A stretch of 64,000 bases of DNA from Clostridia bacterium (GTDB lineage Bacteria > Bacillota > Clostridia > Christensenellales > UBA1242), in NCBI GenBank assembly GCA_900767835.1, contig CAAGAO010000029.1:163-64162 (forward strand), read 5' to 3'. Within the stretch, counting starts at the first letter, position 1. Each line of letters begins with the position of its first letter. Under the pieces are notes generated by a model. It was not told where the DNA came from. It ran no database searches and worked only from the letters and a program-made list of their open reading frames with translations. Below, one piece after another: positions 5,088 through 27,563 of this stretch. Made by a program: the position numbers and the translations under genes.

Positions 5088-5124
5088 GCTACTGTGGCTC
5101 AGCGGTAGAGCACTGCCTTGGTAA
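5088..5124 (+). other. Orphan 5' half of a tRNA-Thr(GGU) (acceptor through anticodon loop)
   Basis: GCTACTG-TG-GCTC-AGCGGTA-GAGC-A-CTGCC-TTGGTAA, then non-tRNA sequence. Its acceptor and anticodon-stem strands are perfectly complementary to the 3' half at 5225..5262. Confidence 0.7.
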
Positions 5125-5187
5125 AACAAAAACAGCACTTTTTCACTACTCAAAATCACCGCAAAAATCGTTCAAAAACAGCACTAT

Positions 5188-5262
5188 GCTGGTGTGGCTC
5201 AGCGGTAGAGCACCACCTTGGTAAGGCAGGGGTCACGGGTCCGATTCCCGTCAGTAGCTCCA
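5188..5262 (+). tRNA. tRNA-Thr (anticodon GGU), 75 nt with encoded CCA; chimeric stems
   Basis: Manual cloverleaf with anticodon loop TTGGTAA. The acceptor has one G.G mismatch and one G.U pair. The anticodon stem CCACC/GGCAG has 2 mismatches. The T-loop is TCCGATT, i.e. C at position 55. Confidence 0.65.
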
Positions 5263-5268
5263 CTTATT

Positions 5269-5317
5269 AAAAATCGCTAAAATCCTTTATTTCCCTAGGG
5301 TTTTGGCGATTTTTTAT
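5269..5317 (+). terminator. Hairpin/terminator after the tRNA
   Basis: AAAATCGCTAAAATCC...GGTTTTGGCGATTTT followed by a T-run. Analogous hairpins follow the tRNA fragments at 19202 and 25924. Confidence 0.55.
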
Positions 5318-5355
5318 TCTTATTTTTTAACGAAATTTTTAAAGCGAAAAAACAT

Positions 5356-5490
5356 TTGCTGTCAATTTTTGGTGCAATTGCTGTCAATATTTGCTCCATA
5401 AAAAAGACCGATAGTCAAAAAATCAACTATCGGTCTAATTCTTTCGTAAACTCTCTAAAACTGGTACATTTGCTGTCAATTGCTGTCAAA
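5356..5490 (+). repeat. Four direct copies of TTGCTGTCAA(T/A) (candidate integrase arm-type sites)
   Basis: Copies at 5356-5366, 5378-5388, 5470-5480 and 5480-5490. They lie between the tRNA and the integrase 3' end. Confidence 0.55.
5400..5435 (-). terminator. Terminator of the integrase gene
   Basis: GACCGATAGT...ACTATCGGTC 10-bp stem followed by a T-run on the minus strand. Confidence 0.55.
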
Positions 5491-5494
5491 TTAT

Positions 5495-6862
5495 TTACAT
5501 CTCAAAATCTTTTTCTTTTCTTCTGCGTTTGCGTTCTTGCAATTTTTCAAGTTCATGAATTTGGCGTTCTATTTCTTCATCAGATAAATCATCATCAATT
5601 TCTTGTTCAACTTCTCGCTCTTGTTCGTGCTCTTGAATTTTTGTGTTTAATCTATCAGTCGCTTCTCTTACATATTCGCTATTGACTGAGTTGTAAACAG
5701 TGATTGTGGTTTTCACATCACGGTGTCCTAAAAGTTGTTGAATTACTTTTGGATTTTCATTCATTTCAAAAAGCATATTTGAAAATGTATGGCGAAGCCC
5801 GTGAAAGTGAATGTGATATTTACTTAAACCATTTCTTCGTTTAAACCTATCAAATATAACTCTTGTGCCATAATAAGTCCTATAACTTCCATTATCATTA
5901 GCAAACACAAAAGATGTTGGTGCGGTTAAAATTGCTGTTACATTTGGATTAGTTTCTTGCCTTTTACTTTGCTTTTCTTTCCATTGTTTTAAGGTCTCTA
6001 GGACAATATCCGTAACAGGTATGTCTCTAACACTGCAAGCAGTTTTCGTGTCACCAATAACCGTTGTGCGGTCTTTAACATTGCCTTGTTCATCAAACTT
6101 TAAAGTTTGTGTAATTGCTCGTTCTATTTTTATTGTTTTATTTGCAAAGTCAATGTTTTTCCATTTAAGCGCCAAAGCTTCACCAATACGAAGCCCAGCA
6201 AACATAAGAGTAATACAAAGCGGTTTAATAAAATTCGCTTCATCTTTATTCAAAGCATCTATAAATTTATCTCTTATTTCAGGTGGCAAGGCTTTGTATC
6301 TTTCATCACCATCTTCTTCATAAACATTTCTTTTACCTTTAACTTTTACTTTCAAAGTTGGATTAATATATATCCATTTATTTTCAATGGAATACTCAAA
6401 AAATTGATTTAATAAATGTTTACACTTCTTTATGGTGTCAACACTGTAACCTTGGTCTAAAAGAATATTTACGAATTTTTGAATTGTATAATTATCAATC
6501 TCATAGACTTTCATTTTGCCGATATGTGGAACAATATGCAACTTGAAGTTTCTAATATTACCTTCAAATGTTCGTGGACTTACAGTGCTTTTTTTGAATG
6601 TCATAAGATATTCAAACATCAATTTTTCAAGGTCGCTATTTTCTACAAGTTCGTAAGAATTACTTTTAACTCTGCCACTTATTTCAGATAATTTTTTAGC
6701 AACTTCGGCTTGTGTTTTTCCATAAATCGTTTTCCTAATAATCTTGCCGTTTTCATCATAGCCCATTGTTAAGGCTCCGCCCCAACGACCATCGCTTCTT
6801 TGGAATATTGAGCCTTCGTTGTTGGCTCTGCGAGTTTTACTTACAACTTTCTTTCTAGCCAT
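5495..6862 (-). CDS. int: Tyrosine site-specific recombinase (phage-type integrase)
   Basis: 455 aa. Catalytic signature AGLRIGEALAL (Arg), HGLRHTF, LLGHRDVKTT and VY (Tyr). SAM-like N-terminal domain. Adjacent to a tRNA gene. Confidence 0.9.
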   Translation of the reverse strand: MARKKVVSKTRRANNEGSIFQRSDGRWGGALTMGYDENGKIIRKTIYGKTQAEVAKKLSEISGRVKSNSYELVENSDLEKLMFEYLMTFKKSTVSPRTFEGNIRNFKLHIVPHIGKMKVYEIDNYTIQKFVNILLDQGYSVDTIKKCKHLLNQFFEYSIENKWIYINPTLKVKVKGKRNVYEEDGDERYKALPPEIRDKFIDALNKDEANFIKPLCITLMFAGLRIGEALALKWKNIDFANKTIKIERAITQTLKFDEQGNVKDRTTVIGDTKTACSVRDIPVTDIVLETLKQWKEKQSKRQETNPNVTAILTAPTSFVFANDNGSYRTYYGTRVIFDRFKRRNGLSKYHIHFHGLRHTFSNMLFEMNENPKVIQQLLGHRDVKTTITVYNSVNSEYVREATDRLNTKIQEHEQEREVEQEIDDDLSDEEIERQIHELEKLQERKRRRKEKDFEM

Positions 6863-6863
6863 T

Positions 6864-7118
6864 TTACACCTCGCTTTGGTTGTTGTTTAGTGTTAGCCAA
6901 GTTACAAAATTAAGCACACTCACAACTTGTCGTTTGCCAACTTTGGTTGTTGGAAAACTTTTGCTTCTAAGCAGGTTTCTAACATTATCTCTGCCAAGTC
7001 CAGTGATTTTTATTAAGTCTTCGCAATCCAAAAAATCCTTATTATATTTAGTTGAAATTCGGTCAACTTCCGCTTGTATTAAGTTGTTTAAATTTAGATT
7101 CGTATTGTTTAAATTCAT
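6864..7118 (-). CDS. xis: Excisionase / MerR-type HTH DNA-binding protein
   Basis: 84 aa, 1 nt upstream of int. The segment LIKITGLGRDNVRNLLRSKSFPTTKVGKRQVV resembles the HTH_17/excisionase fold. Confidence 0.6.
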   Translation of the reverse strand: MNLNNTNLNLNNLIQAEVDRISTKYNKDFLDCEDLIKITGLGRDNVRNLLRSKSFPTTKVGKRQVVSVLNFVTWLTLNNNQSEV

Positions 7119-8181
7119 AGTTTAATGTTCCTTTTATTTGTAAGATTTTTTTCTTTCTACAATCTCTTTCTAAATCTAAATTTACTAAAATCTATCTGCG
7201 TCGAGCAAAATAGAAGTGGTAGGTTACTACCATAAAAATAAAGTGGGTTTCACACTTGTAATTTGTTAAGGGAGATGACTCAAAAATGATGCTTTTTTAT
7301 TTTTAAGCTGAATCGTAAAAATACCAGTATTTTAAAGGCTTTCAAGCACTTAAAAAGTCATTTTGAGCCAATCTCTTATCCTGCTCGTTAAAATAAACGC
7401 CATTCTTCCTCGAAATTTCAATGCATAATTACATTTTTCATCACTTTTCATAATCCTTCATAATTTTAAAAATATTTTTATTCCTATTAGAACTTGCATA
7501 AGTGTTGACTTTGAAATAAGTGTTAAAGTTGTTTAATTAGTCCATATTTGCTCGAACCTCCTTTTGATGATAATTTATCTGTCTATACTATTTTCTTGTC
7601 ATAATGGCTTGATTTTGGCTTCGTACCTCCTTTTATAAATTTCTCACAGCAAAAAAAGAAACCACAAAATTGATTTCTTAATTGTTCGTCTTTCTAAAAC
7701 GGCTGGAATGAAGTTTTGCAATTACTCTATTAACCACACCAGCGCTCAAAATATCTTTTCTTTATTAAATTTTCATTTCTTATCTAACAAGTAAAGAATA
7801 ATTAAAAATTATATTTATAAATAATATAGGAGTGGGAAGTGGGTGGCACTTTTCCTTGTTAGAGATGTTTGTTTGAACAATCCGCTTGTCAACAACACCA
7901 GCATATTTTTACTTTGTAAGAGAACTATAATGCCATTCAAAAAATCCCCCTCTATAATGTTAACCACTCGTTTTCTAAAATCGTTGCCCATTTTTGCCAC
8001 TTTTTGAAAACTTTCTTTAAAATTTTTTTTAATCCCTTCACTTTATTAACTACATATTATTCCAAATCGTCAGGGTTTTTTTCAAAAATTTCATTAAAAA
8101 AGGTAAAATTTTTTATTAAAATTCATTATTATTTATTGGTACGACAAAAAAACACCCAATCAATTAAGATTGAATGTTTGC

Positions 8182-11100
8182 TTAATTTACCATTAATTTA
8201 CTTGTTTGTTCAATGAATTTTGCTGGTATTTTATTTTTCAATCTCCAAACAAAAGATATAGGCCTTGAGCCTTCATGTGAAACATAATCTGCAAAACCTA
8301 AAATTGAATAGTTCTCTGTCAAGCCAGTTTCATCGTTTCTGTTATTTCTTACGCAAATAAGTATTTTGTTATCAGTTTCTCTATGATGAATATATCTTTG
8401 ACCAACTTTAGATGTAACATCTGTGCCATTTTGAGATTGCCAATGAAATAATTCATCATTAATAGAATAATCTTCATATCTCGTTTCTGGTGAATAATAC
8501 TTTTCTGATTTATTTAATGTAACAAAAAATATATCTGTCTTTTGATTTTCAATATACCAAACTCCGGCCGTTAATGGATAATATGTATCCTCCGTATATA
8601 TTCCATATCCAGCCAAAATTTGAGCATTAGAATAACTAGAATATAATTCTAATGGATTTTTACCATCTAACACTAATGGTGAATTTGTAATATCAATTTT
8701 TGAATAATTAAATTTTAATAATTCCAAAATTTCATCGTAATAGTCAGTGTTGATCAGACTATAAATACTTTCAAGCACATTGTTAAAACCAAGAGATTTT
8801 GGTGATTTTTGAGCTTCATAAGTATAATGAAGCATTAATAAACATCGTTTATCATACTCAGTAATATCTGCAAGAGATTTGTTTTTAATTTTAGGTAATA
8901 AATATAATAGTTTTTTTATCCATGCTGTTGAATTTATTTGGGTAGCTCTCGCTAAAAAGTTTATAATTTTGTCATTATCTTTCAAATCTTTATTTTGTAA
9001 GCTTGTAAAAGAAATGCCCATTTTATATAGTTTGGCAGGGTTTAAGTTGTAATAGTTGAAAAAATTCGCATAACTAACAGGCAATCCACTATCATTTTCA
9101 AAATTATCATATTTTTCAATAATATTGTTTTTATTGTTAAAAGATTGTCGTATGTTGTTAAGGACATAATCTTTTGCTTTCTTTTCTAACGTTATAAAAC
9201 AACCTTTAGGCAGGTTCGGAAACCCCATTTTAATTTCTGTTGAAATTGAACCAGCATTTACACCAAGCAAAGCTTGATATTTATCTGCATATCGATACTT
9301 CTTATTTGCTTGTCCAACATAATCCAAAACTGTTAAACAGTCTTTGCCATCTGATAGTCTCAGACCTCTACCAAGTTGTTGTAAAAATACAGTTAAACTA
9401 TCTGTTGGGCGTAAAAACAAAACGGTATTAACTTCCGGAATATCAATTCCTTCATTATACAAATCAACTACAAAAATAAATTTTATATCGCCATTAATCA
9501 ATTTATTTTTCGCTGTAGCTCTATCTTCTTCGGAACTATCAGAGTTCAGAGAGAGTGATGGAATATTGCAATCATTGAAAATTTTAGCCATATAATCAGC
9601 ATGATTCTTACTTACGCAAAAACCTAAAGCCTTTACATCATCAATATTGTTAAGATATTTATCTAAGGATTGAACAATCATGGAAGCCCTAGTTTTATTG
9701 AAAGATAAAACATTATCAAGTTCTTTTAAATCGTAGCCACCTCTAGTCCATTTAACATCACTTAAATCAGTATCATCTGAAATACCAAAATAAGAAAACG
9801 GAACAAGTAAATTTCTATCAATTGATTCTGGCAATCTAATTTCTGCTGAAATTTTTCCATTAAAATATTTTAATATATCTTTACCATCCATTCTTTCAGG
9901 GGTAGCTGTTAATCCTAAAAGAATTTTTGGGTTAAAATGCGATAATAATCTTTGATAAGTATCTGCAGCTGCATGATGAAATTCGTCAACAACAATATAA
10001 TCATAAAAATCTGAAGAAACACTTTCATACAGTTTTTTCGAATTAAAAGTTTGAATTGAAACAAATAAATTATCAAAACTAGGAGGAATTATTCCATCTA
10101 CCATCAAATTTCCAAAATTATGATCCTTTAATACTGATCTAAATTTTTTAATTGATTGTTCAAGTATTTCTTTTCTATGGGCAACAAACAAGAAGTTAAC
10201 TTTTTGATTTTTATGTTCTGCCAAGAAACGGTTAAAATCTAATGCTGAAATTATTGTTTTCCCGGTTCCAGTAGCTGCCACAACTAAATTTTTGTAATTT
10301 CCAAAATTTTCTCTTTCAACTTTTAATTTTTCTAAAACGCGTTCTTGATAAGGATGGGGAATAATGTCTACAACATAAGGATTGTTTTCATTTTTCCTTG
10401 GATATTTTTCTTCATTTAGTGCTTGTCTTAGCTTTAATTGGTCTTTTATTGTAAATGTTTCAAATTCATCATTGTGCCAATATACTTCAAATGTTCCACA
10501 TATTTTATCAAAAACATCTTTCATTTCATGTTCAGTAACTTTCACGTTCCATTCTGTGCCACTTGTTAAAGCCGCACTTGAAATATTTGAAGAACCCACA
10601 TATGCTGTTGAAAAACCAGTTTTTCTTTTAAAAACATAACTTTTTGCATGAAGCCTAGTAAATTTGGTGTTATACGAAATTTTTATTTCAGTATTATTTA
10701 GTTCTGCTAATTTTTCAATTGCTTTAGCATCAGTACTTCCGGTATAAGTAGTTGTAACTATTCTAAGTTTACCGTCATTGTCAGTAAATGTTTTCAAATC
10801 GTCAAACATTCTAACAATACCACTCCATTTTATAAAAGAAACAATAAAGTCTATTTCATCTGAACTTTCAATTTCTTTTTTCAACTCACTTAAAAACTGA
10901 GCATCTGTATTTGCCCCAGTAAAAATAAATGGTTCAGAGATTGAATAGTATGGGCGAGTTGGATATGTTGTTTTAACTGCTGCAATGTTGTTCTTTTTAT
11001 TAACCAATGAATACAATATTTCTCCATTGCTATTAATCTTTTGAGTGTCGTAAAATTTATCATTAGTTTTATCTTCAATCTGAGAGATCAAGTTATTACA

Positions 11101-11298
11101 AAATTCTAATTGTTCTTCTACCGAACAATTAGAATCCTTTAAATCTTTTAGTCCGCTTTCCAAAACAGAAGAAAAATATTTAGATAATATTTGGGGTGCT
11201 TTTTCTTTATCTATTTTGTTTTTTTCAACTTGTATTGATTCTTCATCAATACTGGATAATGCCTTATTAATAATTTGTTCATAAAGCCCAAATTCCAT
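8182..11298 (-). CDS. PLD-family nuclease / SF2 DExH helicase / DUF3427 fusion protein
   Basis: 1038 aa. PLD motif HAKSYVF...VGSSNIS. Helicase motifs AATGTGKT (I), VDEFHH (II), LTATPER (III), QQLGRGLR (VI). A long C-terminal domain has the architecture I recall for DUF3427 proteins. AAGGAG ribosome-binding site; the gene starts 40 nt after the hsdR stop. Confidence 0.8.
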   Translation of the reverse strand: MEFGLYEQIINKALSSIDEESIQVEKNKIDKEKAPQILSKYFSSVLESGLKDLKDSNCSVEEQLEFCNNLISQIEDKTNDKFYDTQKINSNGEILYSLVNKKNNIAAVKTTYPTRPYYSISEPFIFTGANTDAQFLSELKKEIESSDEIDFIVSFIKWSGIVRMFDDLKTFTDNDGKLRIVTTTYTGSTDAKAIEKLAELNNTEIKISYNTKFTRLHAKSYVFKRKTGFSTAYVGSSNISSAALTSGTEWNVKVTEHEMKDVFDKICGTFEVYWHNDEFETFTIKDQLKLRQALNEEKYPRKNENNPYVVDIIPHPYQERVLEKLKVERENFGNYKNLVVAATGTGKTIISALDFNRFLAEHKNQKVNFLFVAHRKEILEQSIKKFRSVLKDHNFGNLMVDGIIPPSFDNLFVSIQTFNSKKLYESVSSDFYDYIVVDEFHHAAADTYQRLLSHFNPKILLGLTATPERMDGKDILKYFNGKISAEIRLPESIDRNLLVPFSYFGISDDTDLSDVKWTRGGYDLKELDNVLSFNKTRASMIVQSLDKYLNNIDDVKALGFCVSKNHADYMAKIFNDCNIPSLSLNSDSSEEDRATAKNKLINGDIKFIFVVDLYNEGIDIPEVNTVLFLRPTDSLTVFLQQLGRGLRLSDGKDCLTVLDYVGQANKKYRYADKYQALLGVNAGSISTEIKMGFPNLPKGCFITLEKKAKDYVLNNIRQSFNNKNNIIEKYDNFENDSGLPVSYANFFNYYNLNPAKLYKMGISFTSLQNKDLKDNDKIINFLARATQINSTAWIKKLLYLLPKIKNKSLADITEYDKRCLLMLHYTYEAQKSPKSLGFNNVLESIYSLINTDYYDEILELLKFNYSKIDITNSPLVLDGKNPLELYSSYSNAQILAGYGIYTEDTYYPLTAGVWYIENQKTDIFFVTLNKSEKYYSPETRYEDYSINDELFHWQSQNGTDVTSKVGQRYIHHRETDNKILICVRNNRNDETGLTENYSILGFADYVSHEGSRPISFVWRLKNKIPAKFIEQTSKLMVN

Positions 11299-11338
11299 GT
11301 AAAAACTCCTTAACCGACTATATAATTTTTGTTATATT

Positions 11339-15203: not shown

Positions 15204-15215
15204 AAAATTTCCTCC

Positions 15216-16366: not shown

Positions 16367-16376
16367 TCTGTACCAC

Positions 16377-18482: not shown

Positions 18483-18486
18483 AAAT

Positions 18487-18792: not shown

Positions 18793-18802
18793 TATTTTCT
18801 CC

Positions 18803-18828
18803 GTAAATACGTTAGTTAACATATTTAC
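18803..18828. promoter_or_regulatory. Inverted repeat GTAAATA-N12-TATTTAC (candidate operator / C-box)
   Basis: Sits immediately upstream of the ribosome-binding site of the HTH gene. The centre contains GTTAAC. Confidence 0.4.
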
Positions 18829-19159
18829 ATAATAACACATTTAAAACTTAAATACAAATGATTTTTATTAAATATAATATAAATCAACAATTTAAAAAAT
18901 CAAATCTTTACCATTTAATTAATATAGCAGCATCAAATTATTAAATTGCAAAATTAAAGATTGTTTACGAGAATAAAAGTCCACAAAGTTCTATGTTGTT
19001 TTAAAGCGTTTAGGAAGGAAAAGAGTGGCTGGAAATGTGTGTTTAATAGTACATAGGGTTTGGAAAATTGTGTACCTAAATAAAAAATACTAGCGAAAGT
19101 GCTAGTATTCATGGATGATTTTGGGGTGTGGGCACAAGTTTGGAGCAAAGGTTAATGTG

Positions 19160-19202
19160 TTGGTAGATGGGGGCATGGGTCCGATTCCCATCACCAGCTC
19201 CA
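19160..19202 (+). other. tRNA-Thr-like 3' half (att remnant) ending in CCA
   Basis: TTGGTA...ATGGG-TCCGATT-CCCAT-CACCAGC-TCCA. The acceptor strand CACCAGC is the exact complement of GCTGGTG, the 5' end of the tRNA at 5188. The T-stem covaries with the 5240 copy. Confidence 0.7.
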
Positions 19203-19206
19203 TTAT

Positions 19207-19256
19207 TAAAAATCCTTGAAACCTAAGTTATATGGGCACTTTCAAGGGTTTTTATT
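19207..19256. terminator. Bidirectional hairpin terminator
   Basis: AAAAATCCTTGAAA...TTTCAAGGGTTTTT. Closely related to the hairpin at 25930..25978. Confidence 0.6.
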
Positions 19257-19295
19257 TTACAATTTTTTAGATCACAACTCTCTTCAAAAAATACA

Positions 19296-19314
19296 TTAGG
19301 TACATTTAGGTACA
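19296..19314 (+). repeat. Two direct TTAGGTACA copies, 10-nt phase (an inverted copy lies at 19071..19079)
   Basis: CATTAGGTACATTTAGGTACAC abuts the RT stop codon. It occupies the same relative position as the TTGCTGTCAA repeats of module 1. Confidence 0.5.
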
Positions 19315-20865: not shown

Positions 20866-20881
20866 ACTATACCTTTGATAT

Positions 20882-20909
20882 ATTATAGCATATTTTGTAA
20901 AATTTTCAA
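20882..20909 (-). promoter_or_regulatory. Sigma-70-type promoter of the RT gene
   Basis: On the minus strand: TTGAAA, 16-nt spacer, TGC-TATAAT (extended -10). It lies about 17 nt upstream of the RT start codon. Confidence 0.6.
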
Positions 20910-20918
20910 TACATTGCT

Positions 20919-21690
20919 TTACATTTCCATATCACTTTCTCGTCTGCGTTTACGTTCTTTGCGTTCTTCGAGAAGCTTTGTGAGAATTTCATCAAACTCG
21001 TCATCATCCATATCTGCAACAAACTCATTTTTGCGTTGTTCAAGAATTTCCTCTCGCTTTTTATCGTTTAAAAGCATTTGGCCTTCTTTAACTCTTTCGT
21101 TAAACTTGTCAGTTGTCTGGCGGATATATTCGCTATCAACAGAATTATAGACCGTGATTGTTGTTTTAACATCACGGTGGCCTAAAAGTTGTTGAATAAC
21201 CTTTGGGTTCTCATTCATTTCAAAAAGCATATTTGAGAATGTATGGCGAAGCCCGTGGAAGTGAATATTACATTTGGTTAATTGATGTCGGTCTTTTCCA
21301 GCCATCAAAATGTTTTCTACAGCCATAATATGTTCTAACACTTCCATCATCATTAGAGAAAATATAGGCCGTATTTGCCGTCAAATCGGCAGTAACTCTT
21401 GGATTGGATTTCTGTATTTCCTTTTGCTTTTCTCACCATTCTTTAAGCGTTTCAATAATTATATCAGCAATAGGAATTTCTCTCACACTACATGCCGTTT
21501 TTGTGTCTCCAACAACTGTTAAACGACTTGTTACATTGCCTTCATTATCAAACTTTGGTATTGTTGTTATTGCTCGTTCTACTTTTAATGTTTTAGTTTC
21601 AAAATTTACATTTTACCATTTCAGTGCAAGCGTTTCACCAATACGAAGCCCACCAAACATTAAACAAACACAAAAAAGATATCATTCCTA
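20919..21690 (-). pseudogene. Tyrosine integrase pseudogene (paralogue of int 5495..6862)
   Basis: The C-terminal 144 aa is intact and nearly identical in the block HFHGLRHTFSNMLFEMNENPKVIQQLLGHRDVKTTITVYNSV. Upstream there is one frameshift after ...RTYYG and two in-frame stops (KW*, EW*). Homology ends at about 21690, so about 215 N-terminal codons are missing. Confidence 0.8.
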
Positions 21691-21868
21691 ATGGTAAAGA
21701 CCCAAAATTATCAACTAACGAAGATTTTGACCATGGTCTGGCAATTTCATACAAAACAACAACTATCAATAATAAAATAATACTCGAATAAATAGAATAC
21801 ACTATAAAAATATTAAAATATGCGAAAATAATATTAACTGTAAGCAATAAACACCATATCAATAACAT
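21635..21868 (-). CDS. Small membrane protein (2 TM)
   Basis: 77 aa and very hydrophobic. Its 3' end reads into the integrase remnant. Lies 13 nt downstream of the preceding small TM gene. Confidence 0.45.
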   Translation of the reverse strand: MLLIWCLLLTVNIIFAYFNIFIVYSIYSSIILLLIVVVLYEIARPWSKSSLVDNFGSLPLGMISFLCLFNVWWASYW

Positions 21869-21881
21869 TAAAAATAAAATT

Positions 21882-22082
21882 TTATATTTTTTCGTATTTT
21901 TTGCTTTTAACTTTTATAAAACCTTCAAAAACAATCCAGAAAATATTAACAATAGCAAAAATTAAATGTAATATTGATATCTCATCAAAAAAAGAATAAA
22001 CAAAAGTAGTTACCCCAAGAATACAAACTATTAAAGATATTATAATATTTAATTTGCTTCCTTTCACTTTCTTTCTCCTCAA
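21882..22082 (-). CDS. Small membrane protein (2 TM)
   Basis: 66 aa. Basic N-terminus MRRKKVKGSK followed by two hydrophobic helices. Lies 4 nt downstream of the 22087 gene. Confidence 0.5.
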   Translation of the reverse strand: MRRKKVKGSKLNIIISLIVCILGVTTFVYSFFDEISILHLIFAIVNIFWIVFEGFIKVKSKKYEKI

Positions 22083-22086
22083 AAAA

Positions 22087-23076
22087 TTATAATACTACTT
22101 CAACTTCTTGTGATTTATTGTTAGGTAAATATGAACCTATGTCTGCTTGATTATCTGCAAGCGCTTTATATACACCCATTAATTCTTTAATTTGGGGTTC
22201 TTGTCCTTGCATTGCTTTTGTTTGAATATTATTCAAAACTTTTGCTATTTCATCATTAGTTAAACCTTTTTTTACTAATCTATTTACATAGTCAGAAATA
22301 TCTTGATTCTTTTCATAATTTTGAAGATTGATTATTTGAGCTGTATCCCTTGCTTCATATTTCATCTTAGGAATTTCTATTTTTATACCACCTTGTTGTC
22401 TACCATTCTTTAAATCTTCATCTTCTTGTGTGATTTGCAAATCACTATTGCAATTTAGAAATGAATTTATTTGTTCCAAAGATTTTATAACCAATGTTGG
22501 TATTTTGGCAACATTCTGCTCACCATAATACATCTTGCTTCTATTTGTGGGATCATAAATGTAACCAACATTATTTTCTTTATCTTGAATAACAATAAAC
22601 GCATGATTCTCTCGATTAGTTCCATTTGTAGCATCAGCCAAAACCATCTTACAATCATATCCCAAAATCTGCAAAAAATTATTTGCCATCGCAGACTTTT
22701 GAATACATTGTCCACCTCTGTTTTTATAGTCCTTAATAGAATGAATGTTATTCCTTAATTTTTGTTGTTCTTCTGTAACTGCTTTAACCTCATCCATCCC
22801 ACCAACAAAATAATTATCTAATGTTTGTTGAATTAAAGAAATGTCTTTAGAAATATTTTTATCTTCATTTCCTTTTATTTTAATAAAATCAAAATATACA
22901 TCTTGATCATCCATTTTGAAACCAACCGTGTGGTCTGAGTATGGTTTTAATTCTGTTTGATCACCAATGAATCCTTTACATATCAACATGGGCTTAATAG
23001 CTTTTTTCCTATCATTTTCAATTACTGCATTAATGCTATTCCCTTTTAACTTTTTATATCGTTCAAAATAATCCAT
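22087..23076 (-). CDS. Transglutaminase-like (papain-fold) Cys-His-Asp domain protein
   Basis: Candidate triad residues in the order and spacing typical of transglutaminase-core proteins: GGQC(IQKSAMANNFLQILG), ENHAFIV and YIYDPTN. GAGGG ribosome-binding site before the internal ATG (MDYFERY). Confidence 0.55.
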   Translation of the reverse strand: MDYFERYKKLKGNSINAVIENDRKKAIKPMLICKGFIGDQTELKPYSDHTVGFKMDDQDVYFDFIKIKGNEDKNISKDISLIQQTLDNYFVGGMDEVKAVTEEQQKLRNNIHSIKDYKNRGGQCIQKSAMANNFLQILGYDCKMVLADATNGTNRENHAFIVIQDKENNVGYIYDPTNRSKMYYGEQNVAKIPTLVIKSLEQINSFLNCNSDLQITQEDEDLKNGRQQGGIKIEIPKMKYEARDTAQIINLQNYEKNQDISDYVNRLVKKGLTNDEIAKVLNNIQTKAMQGQEPQIKELMGVYKALADNQADIGSYLPNNKSQEVEVVL

Positions 23077-23413
23077 ATACAACCCTCTATTATAATTATA
23101 ACAAGCAAATAAAAAAATGTATACTCTTTGATTACAGTTTGTATACATTTCTTATTGAAAAAAATTCAAATTTTACTTTTTCGGTCGCAGAAGTTAGTTT
23201 GGTTATTAGTCAAGGCTCGGCAAAAATTCAAGACAGGAGTTTACTAATACGTAAATGACTGGTTTGAATTTTTAGACAGAAACGCAGTCTAATGGCGAAA
23301 TTCACCCCGCGAAATTGTCTATCTACATTCAACACAACACCTATCGCACTTTAAAATATGCTCAAAAGCAAAACAAACCAATAATTTATATCTAACAAAA
23401 AAGAAGACTTTAA

Positions 23414-24361
23414 TCAGTCTTCTTTTTTTGTCGTTTTATCAGTTATATCTTGTATGATTTTATTCATTTCTGGTTCACATTTTTCTAAAATTATAGTTTT
23501 CATTTCTTCTTGATCTTGTTTTGATAAATTTTCAAATTTAGAGTCTGATGCACATATTTCATCAATTGAATCCTTAACTTTATCTTCAACTATTCCAATA
23601 AGAATTTCATCCTTATATCGTTTATCATTTACTAAATCTTGTTTTTGAATAAACAGCTTTGTTATTGTTGGTGTTAAAATATCTATAACTAAAATAATCA
23701 TAGAATTTAGCAAAAGTTGCAAATTATAATAAAGTAATGTTTGCGTTGCTATGTCAATTTTTTTATTTATCAAAACATTTGTCGTAACATACGATATGAA
23801 CAACAAACTTACTCCAAATGGGATTATATCCCAAAAATAATTTTTGGCAGCGATATTTTTTTCATAATCATCTAAAATTTTTGATATTCTTTCATCCAAA
23901 CCGAAAAGTTTAGTCTTCGTTTTATTTTTGCTTACTTCTTTTTCTATAATAACGCACCACGTAACAACTAACGCAGTTAAAATTGCAAATAATGCAAATT
24001 CTATATTCAAAAGATTCCTTGCCTCTTCAATATTGATTTCAATGCTAGGTTTTACAGAAATAAGCAAATTTATTACTATAATGTAAAGAATATAATATTT
24101 AACAAAATTTGGAACTTTAAAAATTACATTTTTTTCTTTAACTTTTTTTGTGTAATGAAAAATTGATATTATTATCGTTGAAATAAGAGTAAAAGACAAT
24201 GTAATAATCGCTGCGACATTAATATTAATGACTTTTAAATTTATTAAAGCATTTGCGGATAAAAATATAATGATAAAACTCGCAATAAAAACAAAAACGA
24301 CATAAAGAATTGCTTTTAATATATGTTTAAAAATTGTTTTACATTTTTGGCTTTTCCCCAT
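23414..24361 (-). CDS. Multi-pass membrane protein (about 6 TM) with acidic C-terminal tail
   Basis: 315 aa, 14 nt downstream of the Fic gene. The terminator hairpin AAGAAGACT..AGTCTTCTT overlaps its stop codon. Confidence 0.6.
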   Translation of the reverse strand: MGKSQKCKTIFKHILKAILYVVFVFIASFIIIFLSANALINLKVININVAAIITLSFTLISTIIISIFHYTKKVKEKNVIFKVPNFVKYYILYIIVINLLISVKPSIEINIEEARNLLNIEFALFAILTALVVTWCVIIEKEVSKNKTKTKLFGLDERISKILDDYEKNIAAKNYFWDIIPFGVSLLFISYVTTNVLINKKIDIATQTLLYYNLQLLLNSMIILVIDILTPTITKLFIQKQDLVNDKRYKDEILIGIVEDKVKDSIDEICASDSKFENLSKQDQEEMKTIILEKCEPEMNKIIQDITDKTTKKED

Positions 24362-24375
24362 TATTTTCTCCTTTG

Positions 24376-25365
24376 TTAAATCTTAAAATACCTTTGGTTT
24401 TTGCTTGTTGGTTTGTCTGGTTCAGTCATTCCAATTAACCCTGCGTCTAGGGCTGGTTGTAAATAATTTTTCCTAAATCCTAGACGAGATTTTAGATTAA
24501 GTTTTTCCATAAGTTCGGTTGCTGACTGTGGATAACTTTCAATCACTTTCATAAGTTCTGTAATTTGATTGTTGATATGGTTATAGTGATTTCCAGTGTC
24601 GGTTATTATATCTTTAATTGCTTTGTTAATTACATCTAGCATAAACTCAATGAAAATATTAGATTTGCCCTGACTAGTAGATAAAGTGATTGCATTGTAA
24701 TAATCTTCTTGGTTATCTTTAATAATGCTTTCGATAGGTATCCAAGCAAATATTGGTTTCCAACTAGCAAGCAATGCTGTCTGCCAAAGTCTTCCAGTTC
24801 TTCCGTTACCATCATTAAATGGGTGGATAAATTCAAACTCATAATGGAAGACACTCGATTTAATTAACATATTTGCGTTGCTGTTTTTCACCCAATCAAA
24901 AAGTTGTCCTAACTGTTGTGAAACAAAATCTGCTGGCGGAGCAAGATGAACAACTTTGCCATCTTGATTATAAACTCCAACTTGTCCCGAGCGGAGCCTT
25001 CCTGCTTCCTTTACAAGACCATTCATCATAATGCCGTGAATTTTCAACAAATCATCAATGCTATATGGATTTATTTCACTTAATTTTTCGTAAGCATTAA
25101 AAGCATTGTGGACTTCTTCAATATCTTTTTGTGGAGCAAGAACCCTTTTCCCATTGATAACATCTGTTACTTGTTCAATAGAGAGTGTGTTGTTTTCAAT
25201 TGCTAATGAAGAGTGAATAGACTTTATTCTACTCACTCTGCGAAGCCTTGGTAATTTTCCCAATTCATTAACACCCGAAAGTTTGCCTAAATTTTCCATT
25301 ATTTCGGAAACAAGTTCCAACATTTCATCAGTTATATCGTATGGTGGAATATATCTATCTTCCAT
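24376..25365 (-). CDS. Fic/DOC family protein (AMPylase-type)
   Basis: Canonical Fic motif HPFNDGNGRTGR. Fic_N-like N-terminus and a winged-helix-like C-terminus. Confidence 0.9.
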   Translation of the reverse strand: MEDRYIPPYDITDEMLELVSEIMENLGKLSGVNELGKLPRLRRVSRIKSIHSSLAIENNTLSIEQVTDVINGKRVLAPQKDIEEVHNAFNAYEKLSEINPYSIDDLLKIHGIMMNGLVKEAGRLRSGQVGVYNQDGKVVHLAPPADFVSQQLGQLFDWVKNSNANMLIKSSVFHYEFEFIHPFNDGNGRTGRLWQTALLASWKPIFAWIPIESIIKDNQEDYYNAITLSTSQGKSNIFIEFMLDVINKAIKDIITDTGNHYNHINNQITELMKVIESYPQSATELMEKLNLKSRLGFRKNYLQPALDAGLIGMTEPDKPTSKNQRYFKI

Positions 25366-25878
25366 TTAAAAACCTCACTTATTTTTGTACAAATAGATTA
25401 TATTATTGGAAGTTGTCGGCAAGCAGCCCAAAGGGATATTTGCCAGCAACTGATGTTTATTCAATCTATGTGACCACGATTTTATCGTGGAATTTGTGAT
25501 AGCAAATAAAATTTTAACTTTTTTAAAATTTTATATCACATAGATTATAACCAATTAAAAATAAAAAGTCAACATCTTGTATACTATCTTGTATATTATG
25601 TTGTATTCTAATTTTAATAAGAAAAAATGTAAGTTATTTATTTCACTCACAAAATTTTTGCGTAAATATGTACTTCAAATACGAAAAGTTCACAAAAGTT
25701 TTAGGCAGTTTTATATAGTTTTAGAACACTTAAATTTACTAAATTTGTTAATTTAAGTGTAAAAAAGTGTAGTAAACTAAAATCTTACAACACTAATTGA
25801 TTTTTTATATCTCAAATTCGCTTATTTTATGGGCGATTTAGGGGATAGAGCGAAACTCTTGAATTTCAGAACAAAGTT

Positions 25879-25924
25879 TTGGTAAGCAAGAGGTTCGGAG
25901 GTTCGAGCCCGCTCGTTAGCTCCA
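25879..25924 (+). other. tRNA-like 3' half (att remnant) ending in CCA
   Basis: TTGGTAA-GCAAG...GGAGG-TTCGAGC-CCGCT-CGTTAGC-TCCA, with one A.G mismatch in the T-stem. No matching 5' half lies upstream. Confidence 0.55.
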
Positions 25925-25929
25925 GATAC

Positions 25930-25978
25930 AAAAACCCTTGAAACCCTAGGGAAATAGGCACTTTCAAGGGTTTTTGTT
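25930..25978. terminator. Hairpin homologous to the one at 19207..19256
   Basis: AAAAACCCTTGAAA...CTTTCAAGGGTTTTT. Confidence 0.55.
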
Positions 25979-26126
25979 TTGCAAAAAAATTTGTTTAATT
26001 TTAGACTAAAAATACAAAACGCGAGCGTAAACTGCTCCAAAAAGTGTAGTAAAATTGCATAAAAAAAGACCGAGAGTTCAATTTTTAAACTCTTGGTCTA
26101 ATTCTTTCTAAATCTCCCTAAAACTA

Positions 26127-26154
26127 GTGTAATATGGTGTAAATTGGTGTAATA
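26127..26154 (+). repeat. Three direct GTGTAA(T/A) copies in 10-nt phase
   Basis: AGTGTAATATGGTGTAAATTGGTGTAATA. In addition, AGTGTAGTAAA occurs at 25766 and 26043, on both sides of the tRNA fragment. Confidence 0.5.
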
Positions 26155-26156
26155 AA

Positions 26157-26642
26157 TTATTTAATAACTTTCAAATCATCAATCTTTACTGAGATACAAT
26201 CACCATAATAATTTCCATCTTTATCTATACCAGAAAAATCCACTTCAATATAATTTTGGGAAGCGTTATTATCCATTACACAACCTCTATCACCTTTGTG
26301 AATACCAAATTTAGTATAACTTTCTTCTTCAACCAACAATTCAACCATGTCGTATTCGTTTATTGCTATTGGCTCTATGACATTTTTTGCCTTTAATTTT
26401 AAGGTCTCTAATTTAGACAACAATTCTTTTTCAAACTCTGTTGGAAGTTTTTCTTTATCCAAATCTAAATCAATAGTTTTTACATTAACAATTGCATAAT
26501 CTCCGACATTGTGTGGATTAAAAAATAGTACATCTGCATTATCGAAATTTATATCAACTACAATTCCATGCATATCTTTATTTAAATTGTTCGATTTATA
26601 TGGTCTATCGTTTTTAAGTTTTACTATAACTAATTTTTTCAT
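26157..26642 (-). CDS. Putative immunity protein with two DUF4926-like small beta domains
   Basis: ATGA overlap with the upstream toxin-like ORF. The C-terminal repeat DMVELLVEEESYTKFGIHKGDRGCVMD...YIEVDFSGIDKDGNYYGDCISVKIDDLKVI matches my recollection of the DUF4926 pattern. The N-terminal half is a weaker copy. Confidence 0.55.
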   Translation of the reverse strand: MKKLVIVKLKNDRPYKSNNLNKDMHGIVVDINFDNADVLFFNPHNVGDYAIVNVKTIDLDLDKEKLPTEFEKELLSKLETLKLKAKNVIEPIAINEYDMVELLVEEESYTKFGIHKGDRGCVMDNNASQNYIEVDFSGIDKDGNYYGDCISVKIDDLKVIK

Positions 26643-27130
26643 TTTATCCATCCTCCAGATGGTGTAGTATTTTTTATTTTTCCTTCGGGATATAACATCC
26701 AACCGCTATAAAAGGTTATTCCACTTAAAGTGGTTGGAATTGCCAACCTTAAGCCTCTTCTATCTAAATTTTTACGGATATAATTTCCTAAAAGATATTG
26801 TTTTAATGCTTGTTTACAATATTCATTTTGTAGATACTCAGAATCGTTGATATCAGAACCCAAATCATAAAATATTTTATTTTTGCCTTTAGAATCTTTT
26901 ACATTTTTAAAAACATACTCCGTAAATTTCCTTATATCACATTCGGCAATTGCACTATATTTAACATTTGAATATGTAATATCTTTTTTGCGACAATCAC
27001 AGTTATCATGCAATGGCTGCTCCGGCATATTTCTTGTAACAAGATAGCAACCATCTAATGCAGTGTTATACAGAATGTTAAAATAAATGATTTTCTTTTT
27101 GTCATAAAATTCTCCTTTATATTTCCCCAT
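26639..27130 (-). pseudogene. Orphan C-terminal fragment of a polymorphic-toxin-like protein (Mu-F/SPP1-gp7-like HxxCxC motif + toxin-like tail)
   Basis: PLHDNCDCRK resembles the PLHPNCRC motif of the Phage_Mu_F family. The ATG at 27130 has no ribosome-binding site. A strong AAGGAGA site instead serves an out-of-frame 16-codon lipoprotein-like stub, MTKRKSFILTFCITLH*. Confidence 0.5.
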
Positions 27131-27484
27131 TGCAAAAGTGGAGTAGAAAATATGAGTGCCTTTGCAACTATATGTATATAATAATATAAAATATTCAAAT
27201 CTGTATATAAATTTTCAAATTTTCACAACTTAGATAAAAAATTTACAAAATTTTATAGGTTTTATTATCTTCGTTGCGAATTTTTGCAATAAAAATGCAA
27301 GATTTTTGCAATTTTATCGTTTTTTGCCAGATTGTTTTGTATTTTTTTATTTTGTGTGCTAATATAGGTATGAGTTAAGGTAAACCTAGGAAAATAAAGG
27401 GTTTTAGCCATTTTTTAATACGGTAAAACACGATAAAATATGGTAAAAAACACGAACCCCCGAATTACAATCCTTAATTTCTAC

Positions 27485-27525
27485 GAACCGAAAGGTCGGG
27501 GATTCGAATCCCTCCGGTTGCACCA
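27485..27525 (+). other. Degenerate tRNA 3' fragment (att remnant) ending in ACCA
   Basis: GGTCGGGGATTCGAATCCCTCCGGTTGCACCA has a T-arm-like TTCGAAT. No 5' half is present. It is flanked by the inverted repeats AATACGGTAAAA (27417) and TTTTACCGTAT (27658). Confidence 0.5.
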
Positions 27526-27563
27526 AAAAAATAGCGACACATAAAGTGTCGCTATTTTTTTTG
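27525..27563 (+). terminator. Rho-independent terminator
   Basis: ATAGCGACAC-ATAAA-GTGTCGCTAT followed by T8. Confidence 0.65.

Follow-up and report, generated by a model that had tools for sequence, protein, structure and literature searches.

A composite island of stacked mobilizable elements in a tRNA-Thr gene of an uncultured gut Clostridia bacterium

A region of ~22 kb (positions 5088-27563) in the genome of an uncultured gut Clostridia bacterium is a composite island, in which at least three related mobilizable islands are stacked in one tRNA-Thr gene. The window, the whole stretch of DNA analysed here, is 64,000 nt long (Clostridia bacterium, Christensenellales; UBA1242; assembly GCA_900767835.1, contig CAAGAO010000029.1, positions 163-64,162). 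We consider it probable (about 0.8) that the island was formed via site-specific recombination at the anticodon loop of tRNA-Thr(GGT), with TTGGTAA as the core, and that small integrative mobilizable elements (IMEs) were involved. As originally predicted, the tandem modules share a backbone (att arm, integrase, xis) and differ in their cargo. The copies taken to be older have indeed lost their integrases, which is truncated at 21674 in module 2 and absent from module 3. The three modules are:

5218-19160: module 1, relaxase-less, with int and xis intact, a conserved non-coding stretch of 1 kb, a candidate Type IV restriction enzyme and Type I R-M
19160-25879: module 2, with a UG30 reverse transcriptase, a truncated integrase, a cassette 98% identical to ftsW inserts elsewhere and a SoFic-like Fic protein
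25879 to about 27080: module 3, a stump made of an att arm and two cargo genes

The comparison set consists of 80 related integrase loci (53-99% identity) from distinct species genomes. In the relatives compared, the 22 kb is not conserved core genome; on the left flank, only a three-gene block is common to them, and it is arranged differently there. The proposed search of related genomes for an empty site or a single-module version of exactly this locus found none, and no excised circle or attP junction was seen. Nearly all of the 80 loci with enough flanking sequence have a tRNA-Thr(GGT) downstream of the integrase, in the opposite orientation, which agrees with the predicted integration hotspot.

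A single tRNA-Thr(GGT) was called by ARAGORN at 5188-5262 (48.4 bits with Rfam tRNA). An nhmmer profile built from 27 related tRNA-Thr genes detects four Thr-type pieces in the window: this full gene (E 4e-21), one 5' half, at 5088-5124 (E 3e-7), and two 3' pieces, namely a half at 19160-19202 that covers model positions 32-76 (E 1e-5) and a part at 25872-25924 (E 0.017). The half-gene fragments lie below the Rfam thresholds, as expected for half genes, and are significant under the tRNA-Thr profile. The original prediction had listed four 3' fragments: those ending at 19202 and 25924 are of the Thr type, the one ending at 5262 belongs to the full gene and the one ending at 27525 is not Thr; the 5' half had not been listed as such. 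The two Thr-type 3' fragments start with the anticodon-loop core TTGGTAA itself, at positions 19160 and 25879. At many other loci, similarity to the window begins exactly at these two positions, the first base of TTGGTA(A); they are recombination junctions, and not chance matches. The tRNA pieces and junctions are organized as follows:

5018-5024, plus strand: outermost copy of the core TTGGTAA, directly followed by spacer 'a'
5025-5087, plus strand: spacer 'a', 63 nt (BLAST)
5088-5124, plus strand: 5' half of an A-type tRNA-Thr, dead, with the core at its end (5118-5124)
5125-5187, plus strand: spacer 'b', 63 nt, which natively precedes the B-type tRNA-Thr, the type that moves together with the B-lineage integrase
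5188-5262, plus strand: live chimeric tRNA-Thr(GGT), with a B-type 5' half, an A-type 3' half and the core at 5218-5224 (ARAGORN, Rfam, mismatch count)
19160-19314, plus strand: junction 2, with core TTGGTA, a B-type 3' half (decayed, ending at 19202), the hairpin 19207-19254 and the TAGGTACA repeat in two copies
25766-26163, plus strand: junction 3, with a P arm carrying AGTGTAGTAAA (25766), the core TTGGTAA (25879-25885) and a C-type 3' part of tRNA-Thr that runs to 25924; then come a hairpin (25930-25977), another AGTGTAGTAAA copy (26043), a terminator and repeats of GGTGTAA

Self-BLAST bears out the repeated backbone. The hairpins noted earlier as near-identical share 84% (19208-19262 vs 25930-25984), and modules 1 and 3 can be aligned past the hairpin, as had been claimed, at 76% (5400-5497 vs 26062-26163). 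The first tRNA and the second junction share 87% (5229-5275 vs 19169-19214), and the integrase matches the dead integrase at 74.5% over 549 nt (5672-6219 vs 21126-21674).

The only live tRNA-Thr copy in the window is a mismatched chimera. Three of its stem pairs are broken, and its cloverleaf energy is -17.3 kcal/mol, vs -28.6 and -30.6 kcal/mol for the parental types. Partners for both of its halves are present in the window: the acceptor strand CACCAGC of junction 2 pairs 7/7 with its 5' half, and the dead 5' half at 5088-5124 pairs with its 3' half (5225-5262) at 7/7 acceptor and 5/5 anticodon-stem positions. The decayed 3' half at junction 2 is 2 nt shorter than its intact counterpart in locus L092. 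Both internal junctions are attP-like, with the same arm-type repeat on either side: TAGGTACA lies at 19071 and at 19297/19307, and the AGTGTAGTAAA copies at 25766 and 26043 are the only exact ones in 64 kb. Simple successive integration of unrelated lineages does not predict such junctions.

Module 1 contains:

5263-5494, plus strand: left att arm (P'), with the tRNA terminator hairpin, four TGCTGTCAA copies and the integrase terminator
5495-6862, minus strand: tyrosine integrase of the A lineage, 455 aa (Pfam Phage_integrase, 5.5e-26, and SAM-like N-terminal domains)
6864-7118, minus strand: putative excisionase or DNA-binding protein, 84 aa (weak HTH_17 match)
7119-8181, minus strand: non-coding backbone segment, in place of the mob genes
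8182-11298, minus strand: PLD nuclease-helicase-DUF3427 protein (Pfam; PADLOC mREase_IV, 703 bits)
11339-18840, minus strand: Type I R-M operon (Pfam, PADLOC), with hsdR (11339-14320), an embedded 296-aa membrane protein (14313-15203), hsdS (15290-16390), hsdM (16377-18482) and an HTH regulator (18487-18840)
19049-19159, plus strand: right att arm (P), B-lineage in type; it carries a terminator hairpin and one TAGGTACA site, and its tRNA-like 5' part is degenerate

The TGCTGTCAA repeats (at 5357, 5379, 5471 and 5481) are candidate arm-type integrase sites. The left arm, which includes the integrase terminator on the minus strand (5405-5436), is kept in int1-lineage relatives. Copies of the integrase that are 98-99% identical occur in genomes of other species, and the 84-aa protein is near-identical across element lineages, with its position and sequence kept in relatives.

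The non-coding segment has a mean column identity of 83% across seven elements. It contains ~45-nt repeats (ACGATTT...GTTAA...ATAGAGG), a terminator on the cargo side and conserved ribosome-binding sites followed by mini-ORFs of 2-4 codons; no conserved ORF and no Rfam match were found in 7119-8181. The segment does not represent a relaxase gene in decay. The same repeats are found upstream of MobL genes in L040, L043 and L052, and on the strength of these shared repeats the segment is a candidate oriT or regulatory region.

The att system proved more complex than the 3' fragment repeats first described, and the modules are mosaic. Module 1 combines int/xis of lineage A with a non-coding backbone and right arm of lineage B, the latter kept in L029, L041, L050, L092 and L094. 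The switch lies just upstream of xis, at ~7217-7240, and the same hybrid with the same junction is present in L029 and L050. The right-hand core is 1 nt short, and the tRNA half there is also damaged. Module 1 may no longer move, because no relaxase was found in the window, its P arm comes from another lineage and its right core is short.

These features bear on a second, rather unlikely route, in which 19160 and 25879 mark intact attP sites and the elements entered via homologous recombination with a resident xis/int backbone, or as an already fused composite, and not via successive site-specific integrations here. The matching arm repeats around each internal junction and the lineage switch next to xis are in agreement with it, and the recurrence of the hybrid in two other loci suggests that composites travel as units. 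However, a single crossover predicts a second xis copy or a lineage-A right arm, neither of which remains, and same-lineage elements integrating serially would yield the same kind of junction, resembling attP. Neither route excludes the other.

That the elements carry a complete tRNA is supported by the sequences upstream of the live gene. In other species, spacer 'a' is the immediate upstream sequence of the A-type tRNA-Thr travelling with the int1 lineage; it is 99% identical among five species, and further upstream the similarity drops to background. In the five species with int1-lineage elements, tRNA and spacer together are 99% identical, vs 57%, equal to background, upstream of the dead unit. 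Of 56 loci, 47 have between one and three dead units, the commonest spacing being exactly 100 nt, and the number of units varies between near-identical strains. In L011, L023 and L026, the 3' fragment at the far end of the element has its partner (7/7 and 5/5 pairs) in the dead 5' unit that immediately precedes the live tRNA, and in each case this unit differs from the live tRNA; this nested-pair test fails in L029, L041 and L063. The architecture of these relatives indicates that an element carries a complete tRNA-Thr with its 63-nt upstream spacer and splits the resident gene.

Integration would then proceed as follows. The upstream core of the element would recombine with the anticodon loop of the resident tRNA, leaving the resident 5' half and its promoter upstream as a dead unit and pushing the resident 3' half to the far end of the element, while the element-borne tRNA would become the live copy. 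Since each unit would retain a core, later integrations, excisions and unequal exchanges may use alternative cores, resulting in stacked elements, more dead units and possibly chimeric tRNAs. The 5' and 3' pieces of the window itself are not in the simple nested order that this model predicts, and an additional excision or re-integration event, or unequal exchange, is needed to explain them. To the left of the core at 5018, the sequence is not tRNA-like, and its resemblance to a P arm is weak.

In classical accretion, by contrast, an element brings only a 3' tRNA part, which is the usual case for islands that target tRNA genes, and the 5'-half units upstream would have nothing to do with this, being tandem duplicates of the tRNA promoter region that arose locally. 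Most far-end junctions (P arm, core, 3' half) match this model, and the live tRNA of the window, with its resident 5' and incoming 3' halves, is exactly its outcome between unlike alleles. Yet for the displaced 3' fragment in L011, L023 and L026, the perfect pairing partner is the dead unit upstream and not the live 5' half; the spacer and whole live tRNA co-vary with the integrase lineage across species, which the dead unit and flank do not; and dead units always end exactly at the core. Classical accretion alone is improbable.

The modules are members of a large IME family in gut Christensenellales-type genomes. A MobL relaxase (PF18555, E 1e-24 to 3e-28) and an accessory gene are encoded directly upstream of xis-int in about 35 loci. 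The elements are small (about 9-14 kb). Comparison of the relatives established the canonical layout, which reads, in tRNA orientation: upstream core, 63-nt spacer, complete tRNA-Thr, terminator hairpin, arm repeats, cargo slot 1, integrase and xis, MobL relaxase with accessory gene, cargo slot 2, and P arm with core. In the relaxase-less variant, the conserved 1-kb non-coding stretch replaces MobL and its accessory gene. The elements, first proposed to be satellites or islands, are IMEs and not phage satellites: decayed prophage or phage satellite remnants, which the phage-type tyrosine integrase, excisionase-like gene and tRNA target might suggest, are highly improbable, as no satellite or phage genes turned up, the modules of the window and 12 complete relatives alike showing no capsid, terminase, primase or replication genes, the relatives carry a relaxase, and viral contigs (IMG/VR) contain only distant integrases (<=50% identity).

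Slot 1, between the att arm and the integrase stop codon, is filled in 48 of 58 loci with co-oriented genes, including PDC-S19, retron-type and other RTs, ABC-3C, Lamassu, KAP NTPase, AbiEii, RnlAB and HEPN proteins; slot 2 is rich in R-M genes. The reverse transcriptase before the dead integrase of module 2, and the toxin/immunity pair reported at the integrase position in module 3, can therefore be recast as contents of this regular slot. An intact analogue of the left end of module 2 (tRNA-hairpin-RT-int) is present in L065. The remaining features are:

19306-20865, minus strand: reverse transcriptase of the UG/Abi class (best model RT_UG30, PADLOC 380 bits)
20918-21674, minus strand: truncated integrase of the B lineage (Pfam on the C-terminal part)
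21675-23349, minus strand: 1.68-kb cassette abutting the integrase breakpoint; it encodes a 353-aa protein (22087-23148) and a 122-aa membrane protein, the latter split by a frameshift into ORFs of 66 and 77 aa, and includes ~60 nt of the ftsW 3' end (23290-23349)
23414-24361, minus strand: membrane protein, 315 aa, beside the Fic gene
24376-25365, minus strand: SoFic-like Fic-domain protein (Pfam Fic and Fic-like_C; PADLOC SoFic, 151 bits)
26157-27130, minus strand: what remains of the module 3 cargo, a protein of 181 aa (weak DUF4926 match) and an ORF of 163 aa
27382-27563, plus strand: right edge debris, with an inverted copy of the post-tRNA hairpin (27382-27420), a tRNA-Arg(ACG)-like 3' part (about 27478-27525) and its terminator (27526-27563)

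Most of the integrase of module 2 was lost, the break lying at the border of an imported cassette. What is left is a 144-aa ORF (20919-21353), in a remnant whose nucleotide sequence is 84-90% identical to integrases of L053, L057 and L047. In other genomes, inserts with 97.9% identity to the cassette follow ftsW in the cell-division gene cluster and are bordered by ftsW 3' fragments. The trio of TM/transglutaminase-like genes described earlier is a two-gene cassette with one gene frameshifted, and the supposed transglutaminase shows only a weak N-acetyltransferase-fold match (E 0.0024, below cut-off). In module 3, the 163-aa ORF is a copy of a 194-aa gene, truncated at the 5' end and joined to a foreign start; the intact counterpart of the left end of module 3 is arranged as int-194aa-161aa-att arm in L072, and 27084-27225 duplicates 30188-30334 (self-BLAST). 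The fragment ending at 27525 has a T-arm, acceptor strand, CCA and CTACGAA loop, and, judging from canonical sequences, resembles tRNA-Arg(ACG).

The cargo of the window and the 80 related loci consists mostly of defence genes, as the original prediction of a defence island had it, and the suggested PADLOC run, together with Pfam, recovered Type I R-M, a Type IV REase model, the RT (UG30) and Fic (SoFic). The PLD-helicase-DUF3427 protein is a candidate Type IV (modification-dependent) restriction enzyme, and the 296-aa membrane-protein family recurs beside Type I, Type II and Type IV restriction genes. The Type IV enzyme, the Type I R-M with its embedded membrane protein, the UG30-class RT and the SoFic-like Fic protein make the region a defence island, in which the individual cargo genes would serve in defence. 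The stacking (accretion) of islands at tRNA genes is already known. The tRNA-replacement att architecture looks like a new variant of it, in which this island family appears to import its own complete tRNA gene, leaving rows of dead tRNA half-genes behind.

The window has a G+C content of ~29% and a single tRNA gene, tRNA-Thr(GGT), at 5188-5262 (ARAGORN call; 48 bits with Rfam). Parts of further copies were located with nhmmer, using a tRNA-Thr profile built from 27 related genes. The TTGGTA(A) core, which is the crossover sequence of the anticodon loop, is found at 5218, 19160 and 25879, each time together with a tRNA-Thr 3' part. Three modules are distinguished (module 1, 5218-19160; module 2, 19160-25879; module 3, a stump from 25879 to ~27080), and all of their genes are located on the minus strand.

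Features of the tRNA-Thr island (coordinates, strand, description)
5018-5024: outermost core, upstream of the live tRNA
Between this core and the dead 5' half: spacer a, 63 nt
5088-5124: dead tRNA-Thr 5' half of type A with its core (nhmmer E 3e-7)
Between the dead 5' half and the live tRNA: spacer b, 63 nt
5495-6862, minus: module 1, intact tyrosine integrase, 455 aa
Minus: module 1, xis-like protein, 84 aa
7119-8181: module 1, ORF-free stretch, 1.06 kb
Minus: module 1, PLD-helicase-DUF3427 protein (PADLOC Type IV restriction model, 703 bits)
Minus: module 1, hsdR, 296-aa membrane protein, hsdS, hsdM and HTH regulator (Type I R-M by Pfam and PADLOC, the latter with Type I MTase, S and REase)
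19160-19202: tRNA-Thr 3' half (nhmmer E 1e-5)
Minus: module 2, RT (PADLOC best model RT_UG30, 380 bits)
Ending at 21674, minus: module 2, truncated integrase
Minus: module 2, 353-aa protein and two small membrane ORFs
Minus: module 2, 315-aa membrane protein
Minus: module 2, Fic protein (PADLOC SoFic model, 151 bits)
25872-25924: tRNA-Thr 3' part (nhmmer E 0.017)
Minus: module 3, ORFs of 181 aa and 163 aa, no significant family match

On the alignments with 80 related loci, 19160 and 25879 are recombination junctions, because the similarity begins there exactly, at the first base of TTGGTA(A). An Islander-type signature is also present, made of the tRNA at 5188-5262, the integrase at 5495-6862 and the same-orientation 3' fragment at 19160-19202, whose acceptor strand forms 7/7 pairs with the 5' half of the live tRNA. 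All repeats listed in the original prediction were recovered by self-BLAST: the hairpin repeats are 84% identical, the stretch following the hairpin is 76% identical between modules 1 and 3, and the module 1 integrase matches the dead integrase at 74.5% over 549 nt. Of the tRNA 3' fragments that it listed, those at 19160 and 25872-25924 are of Thr type; the piece ending at 27525 is not Thr-like. This last piece has a T-arm, an acceptor strand, CCA and a CTACGAA loop, and is presumably a tRNA-Arg(ACG), decayed as judged by A53 in place of the usual G53. Within 27382-27563, this tRNA-Arg(ACG)-like fragment, with a terminator of its own, adjoins the terminator hairpin of tRNA-Thr in an inverted copy, and the region may have been left behind by an inversion or by a different element that targets tRNA genes. 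A tmRNA match at 19123-19205 (14 bits) merely reflects the tRNA-like junction, and known RNA families gave no meaningful Rfam score elsewhere in the island.

Relatives of the module 1 integrase were confirmed in 128 cases among one-genome-per-species GTDB contigs, and 80 of them, with 53-99% identity, were kept. Almost all belong to uncultured Clostridia, in Christensenellales-type gut MAGs, and in nearly every relative with enough flank a tRNA-Thr(GGT) is located downstream in the opposite orientation. A MobL relaxase (PF18555, E 1e-24 to 3e-28) is encoded directly upstream of xis-int in ~35 loci, accompanied by an accessory protein of ~155 aa, which identifies the family as integrative mobilizable elements (IMEs). 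This IME family of gut Clostridia is large, widespread and previously undescribed; the 12 elements with both ends inside the fetched flanks are 8.7-13.5 kb long. A viral origin, as a phage satellite or prophage, was rejected: IMG/VR holds only integrases of at most 50% identity, and the domain search found no replication/primase, packaging or capsid-redirection genes.

Module 1 has its own recombinase (integrase and xis-like protein), while that of module 2 is truncated and module 3 has none. Module 2, bounded by the junctions at 19160 and 25879, and module 3, which keeps the one at 25879, fit decayed CIMEs, with att junctions kept and integration genes lost. No relaxase was found anywhere in the window by tblastn, nor any T4SS domain among the module proteins, and none of the fetched loci contains the predicted attP of a circular module 1. 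Exact-protein look-ups of both flanking genes returned the same arrangement only, in other samples, and neither these nor a metagenome scan with the left-flank protein gave an empty site. The scan gave eight relatives, whose common part is a three-gene block (1984-4777) in a different neighbourhood. This block (a 366-aa protein, a sigma-70-type factor and a 303-aa membrane protein) is the only part common to the contigs of sister species (L090-L096), where it adjoins rplL, with a junction of the form 'P arm, core, intact 3' half, hairpin' (L092, 2000-2180) ~2.7 kb to its left. Either the block is mobile itself or the locus has been rearranged.

The live tRNA-Thr combines two tRNA types. Its 5' half is of type B (GCTGGTG...CCACC) and its 3' half of type A (GGCAG...CAGTAGC), a chimera that leaves one pair of the acceptor stem and two of the anticodon stem broken. 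The dead 5' half at 5088-5124 pairs perfectly with the 3' half of the live tRNA, the 3' fragment at 19160 carries the B-type acceptor strand, and both perfect parental tRNAs exist in other species. Folding predicts a cloverleaf 11-13 kcal/mol weaker than those of the parental types, with a minimum-energy fold that would not be a cloverleaf. Stem mismatches occur in only 2/27 distinct live tRNA sequences of the family, and a similar chimera with two mismatches is found in one other locus (L088). The window chimera is present in 5/5 independent assemblies of the strain and is the only tRNA-Thr(GGT) in the 64 kb.

Dead units, one to three per locus and each ending exactly in TTGGTAA, are found in 47 of 56 loci, with a modal period of exactly 100 nt. 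Spacer a and tRNA type A go with integrases of the module 1 lineage (int1 lineage; 72-98% identity), spacer b and tRNA type B with those of the module 2 lineage (B lineage; 60-64%). Among five species, tRNA plus spacer are 99% identical, and the sequence beyond the dead unit is at background. In each of three loci (L011, L023 and L026), the far-end 3' fragment pairs perfectly (7/7 and 5/5 pairs) with the dead unit, which differs from the live tRNA. This pairing indicates that a complete tRNA-Thr arrives with the element, together with the 63-nt spacer upstream of it, and that recombination takes place via the core upstream of that spacer, splitting the resident gene.

The most far-reaching interpretation, with a probability only slightly above even (roughly 0.55), is an IME family with a two-core att system, in which each element carries its own complete tRNA-Thr(GGT), promoter included, and a second core 63 nt upstream of it. 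Integration would split and silence the host copy, for which the copy of the element would substitute. Repeated use of the alternative cores would carry 'promoter plus 5'-half' units from species to species, build the arrays of dead half-genes with their 100-nt period and occasionally leave a crippled chimeric tRNA as the sole local copy, as in the window. The term 'promoter' is purely positional, since a sigma-70 consensus scan gave no match in the spacers. No description of such a two-core, tRNA-replacing architecture was found in the literature searched.

For the window, the path might have been the entry of a B-lineage element into a live A-type tRNA via the upstream core, and its later exit via its own anticodon-loop core, leaving the residue 'a, 5'A, core, b, 5'B, core, 3'A'. 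The same product would result from an unequal exchange between cores. The number of dead units differs between near-identical strains (L004 and L005), so the array is still changing. In another locus (L010, 803-956), two complete tRNA-Thr genes flank a 10.7-kb element, with 'P arm, core, spacer' in front of the distal gene; this arrangement indicates that an element can also integrate at an upstream core with both tRNAs staying alive. Two further assignments were discarded: the sequence that precedes the outermost core (~5000-5017) does not resemble a P arm convincingly, and the by-eye idea that spacer a is a decayed 3' half found no support.

The left arm of module 1 contains four copies of TGCTGTCAA; the same holds for both arms of L010 and L011, elements of the int1 lineage. 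Its right arm has TAGGTACA instead, the same repeat as the left arm of module 2, and groups with the B-lineage backbone of L029, L041 and L050. The switch between lineages is located just upstream of xis, at ~7217-7240. At junction 3, AGTGTAGTAAA is present on both sides, in its only two exact copies in the 64 kb. The same arm repeat on both sides makes both internal junctions attP-like, which fits same-lineage neighbours, composite transfer or entry by homologous recombination. Module 1 is missing 1 nt of its right core and, by comparison with the intact L092 copy, 2 nt of its tRNA half; it may be immobile.

The end of the dead integrase (21674) adjoins a cassette (21675-23349) that is 97.9% identical to inserts found after ftsW elsewhere. 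Those inserts sit in the cell-division cluster of other genomes (L111-L118), with several alternative cassettes separated by ftsW 3' fragments, and the window cassette (1.68 kb, coding for the 353-aa protein and a 122-aa membrane protein) includes ~60 nt of ftsW. The comparison points to the ftsW site as a putative second, unrelated integration hotspot. In the window, a frameshift affects the 122-aa membrane gene, and the family of the 353-aa protein is rare (11 clusters); a transglutaminase label for this protein had a sub-threshold match only and was not retained.

Compared with its 194-aa homologue, the 163-aa ORF of module 3 is missing ~50 residues at the N-terminus and starts with a duplicate of the 5' region of a lipoprotein gene (30188-30334), a foreign start that places the right breakpoint of the island near 27080. 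To the right of the island, genes for lipoproteins and surface proteins have repeated 5' regions or promoters with 72-89% identity (27084-27225 with 30188-30334; 28333-28437 with 35304-35401 and 35975-36079; 35301-35531 with 35978-36214). Ordinary chromosome is marked by gyrA and gyrB at 55-60 kb. Further on, 61090-61324 holds a tandem duplication of ~97 nt (97% identity), with palindromes nearby at 61476-61510 and 61808-61865.

The ORF-free stretch at 7119-8181 replaces the relaxase genes in module 1 and in six relatives (L029, L041, L047, L048, L050 and L068). Its mean column identity across these elements is 83%, with no conserved ORF, and a conserved terminator stands at its start. It contains iteron-like repeats of ~45 nt (96-nt repeat units in L041), which are also found upstream of the mob genes in L040, L043 and L052, and two conserved Shine-Dalgarno sequences, each followed by an ORF of 2-4 codons. 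No Rfam match was obtained for this stretch, and its interpretation as a decayed relaxase gene was abandoned for lack of tblastn similarity. It could act in cis, as iterons, as an oriT or by regulating xis-int; the candidate oriT is suggested only by the repeats that the stretch shares with the mob-upstream regions. Module 1 would then be a relaxase-less hitcher of the iOriT kind (10.64898/2026.01.13.699239). Like those hitchers, module 1 and several relatives have int/xis, att and cargo and no relaxase or mating-pore genes, and a short repeated non-coding segment is common to the module 1 group and to relaxase-bearing relatives. Unlike in iOriT elements, the putative oriT is here a 1-kb conserved stretch with mini-ORFs and no defined nic site.

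Cargo is found in two slots. Slot 1, between the integrase stop codon and the tRNA-side att arm, holds 1-4 co-oriented genes in 48/58 loci, among them PDC-S19/DUF3644, several RT classes, ABC-3C, Lamassu, KAP NTPase, AbiEii, RnlA/RnlB, HEPN and Panacea proteins. The window RT is a slot-1 gene, an intact tRNA-hairpin-RT-integrase order is found in L065 (76% nucleotide identity), and the 181-aa/163-aa pair is also slot-1 cargo, with the order integrase, 194 aa, 161 aa, att arm in L072. Slot-1 cargo thus accounts for the RT followed by a dead integrase and for the toxin/immunity pair in the expected place of an integrase, both noted in the original prediction. Slot 2, upstream of the xis and mob genes, contains mainly R-M genes in complete relatives and likewise in module 1. 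In agreement with the proposed defence island, PADLOC matched several recognised anti-phage systems clustered there: a Type IV REase, Type I R-M, RT_UG30 and SoFic.

The module 2 RT matches RVT_1 (1.4e-12) and, over residues 16-507, RT_UG30 (3e-114), and this full-length profile match places the predicted protein in the UG/Abi class. With 220 bits against the NCBIfam Drt4 cut-off of 450, it is not a Drt4 equivalog; an exact-sequence look-up gave no match. Like the UG/Abi defence RTs AbiK, DRT4 and DRT6, it consists of one large RT extended by a helical C-terminal part; unlike them, it fits UG30 best and is a candidate defence gene by profile. To our knowledge, UG30 is not an experimentally tested RT group. 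At least 463 unannotated proteins without Pfam domain make up the family of the 296-aa membrane protein (14313-15203, minus), which is encoded between hsdS and hsdR. In other loci (L100, L104 and L107), homologues are likewise found between hsdS and hsdR, directly after a cluster of three C5-methylases and an HNH nuclease, or directly after a SLFN-type helicase and an SRA/ScoMcrA gene. Judged by its neighbours, it is a predicted restriction-linked membrane protein, in a position that resembles that of PrrC in the E. coli prr locus.

The accretion of tandem modules into a defence island, as originally proposed, was read correctly and is as such ordinary biology. That IMEs and decayed CIMEs accumulate in tandem at tRNA genes is established (PMC5704250), and defence cargo on integrated elements is well documented (PMC10201445). 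As in ICESt1/CIME of Streptococcus thermophilus and the tRNA-Lys composites of S. agalactiae (PMC5704250), a single target gene accumulates related elements of the same att specificity, the older of which have lost integration and transfer genes and kept their att sites, and mosaic structures and possibly complex excision patterns result. Unlike those systems, the island resides in an uncultured gut Clostridia host and targets the anticodon loop of tRNA-Thr(GGT), the cargo of its family is almost purely for defence, and the element would have a complete tRNA gene and a second upstream core, so that both the dead 5' half and the displaced 3' half of the resident gene would remain.

Islander islands (PMC4383910) share the tDNA, the same-orientation displaced fragment and the tyrosine integrase between them, and the crossover is centred on the anticodon here, as in Islander class A. 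Islander counts 3760 islands with a 3' fragment and 159 with a 5' fragment, and arrays of at least three are rare (4/3919) (PMC4383910). Unlike these either/or fragments, one event would leave both in the window family. P4-like satellites and P2 prophages have a fixed backbone with few slots that exchange very diverse anti-phage systems. The window family likewise has a fixed backbone with few defined defence slots; unlike in P4-like satellites, this backbone is conjugation-related (MobL) and one slot lies between an att arm and the integrase stop codon.

What goes beyond the original prediction is the undescribed, large IME family, its two-slot organisation and the proposed multi-core att system with tRNA replacement. 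The family sits in abundant but uncultured Clostridia of the human and animal gut, and its two slots provide a catalogue of defence genes with many unannotated candidates, such as the restriction-linked membrane protein and the UG30 RT. Island finders designed for a single displaced fragment, on one side, would set the limits of these elements wrongly. Accretion can degrade the target tRNA, as the window chimera suggests. If tRNA replacement is true, the textbook rule, by which an island restores the tRNA through a 3' fragment, changes, and the origin of the arrays of tRNA half-genes would be explained, as a readable record of past integrations.
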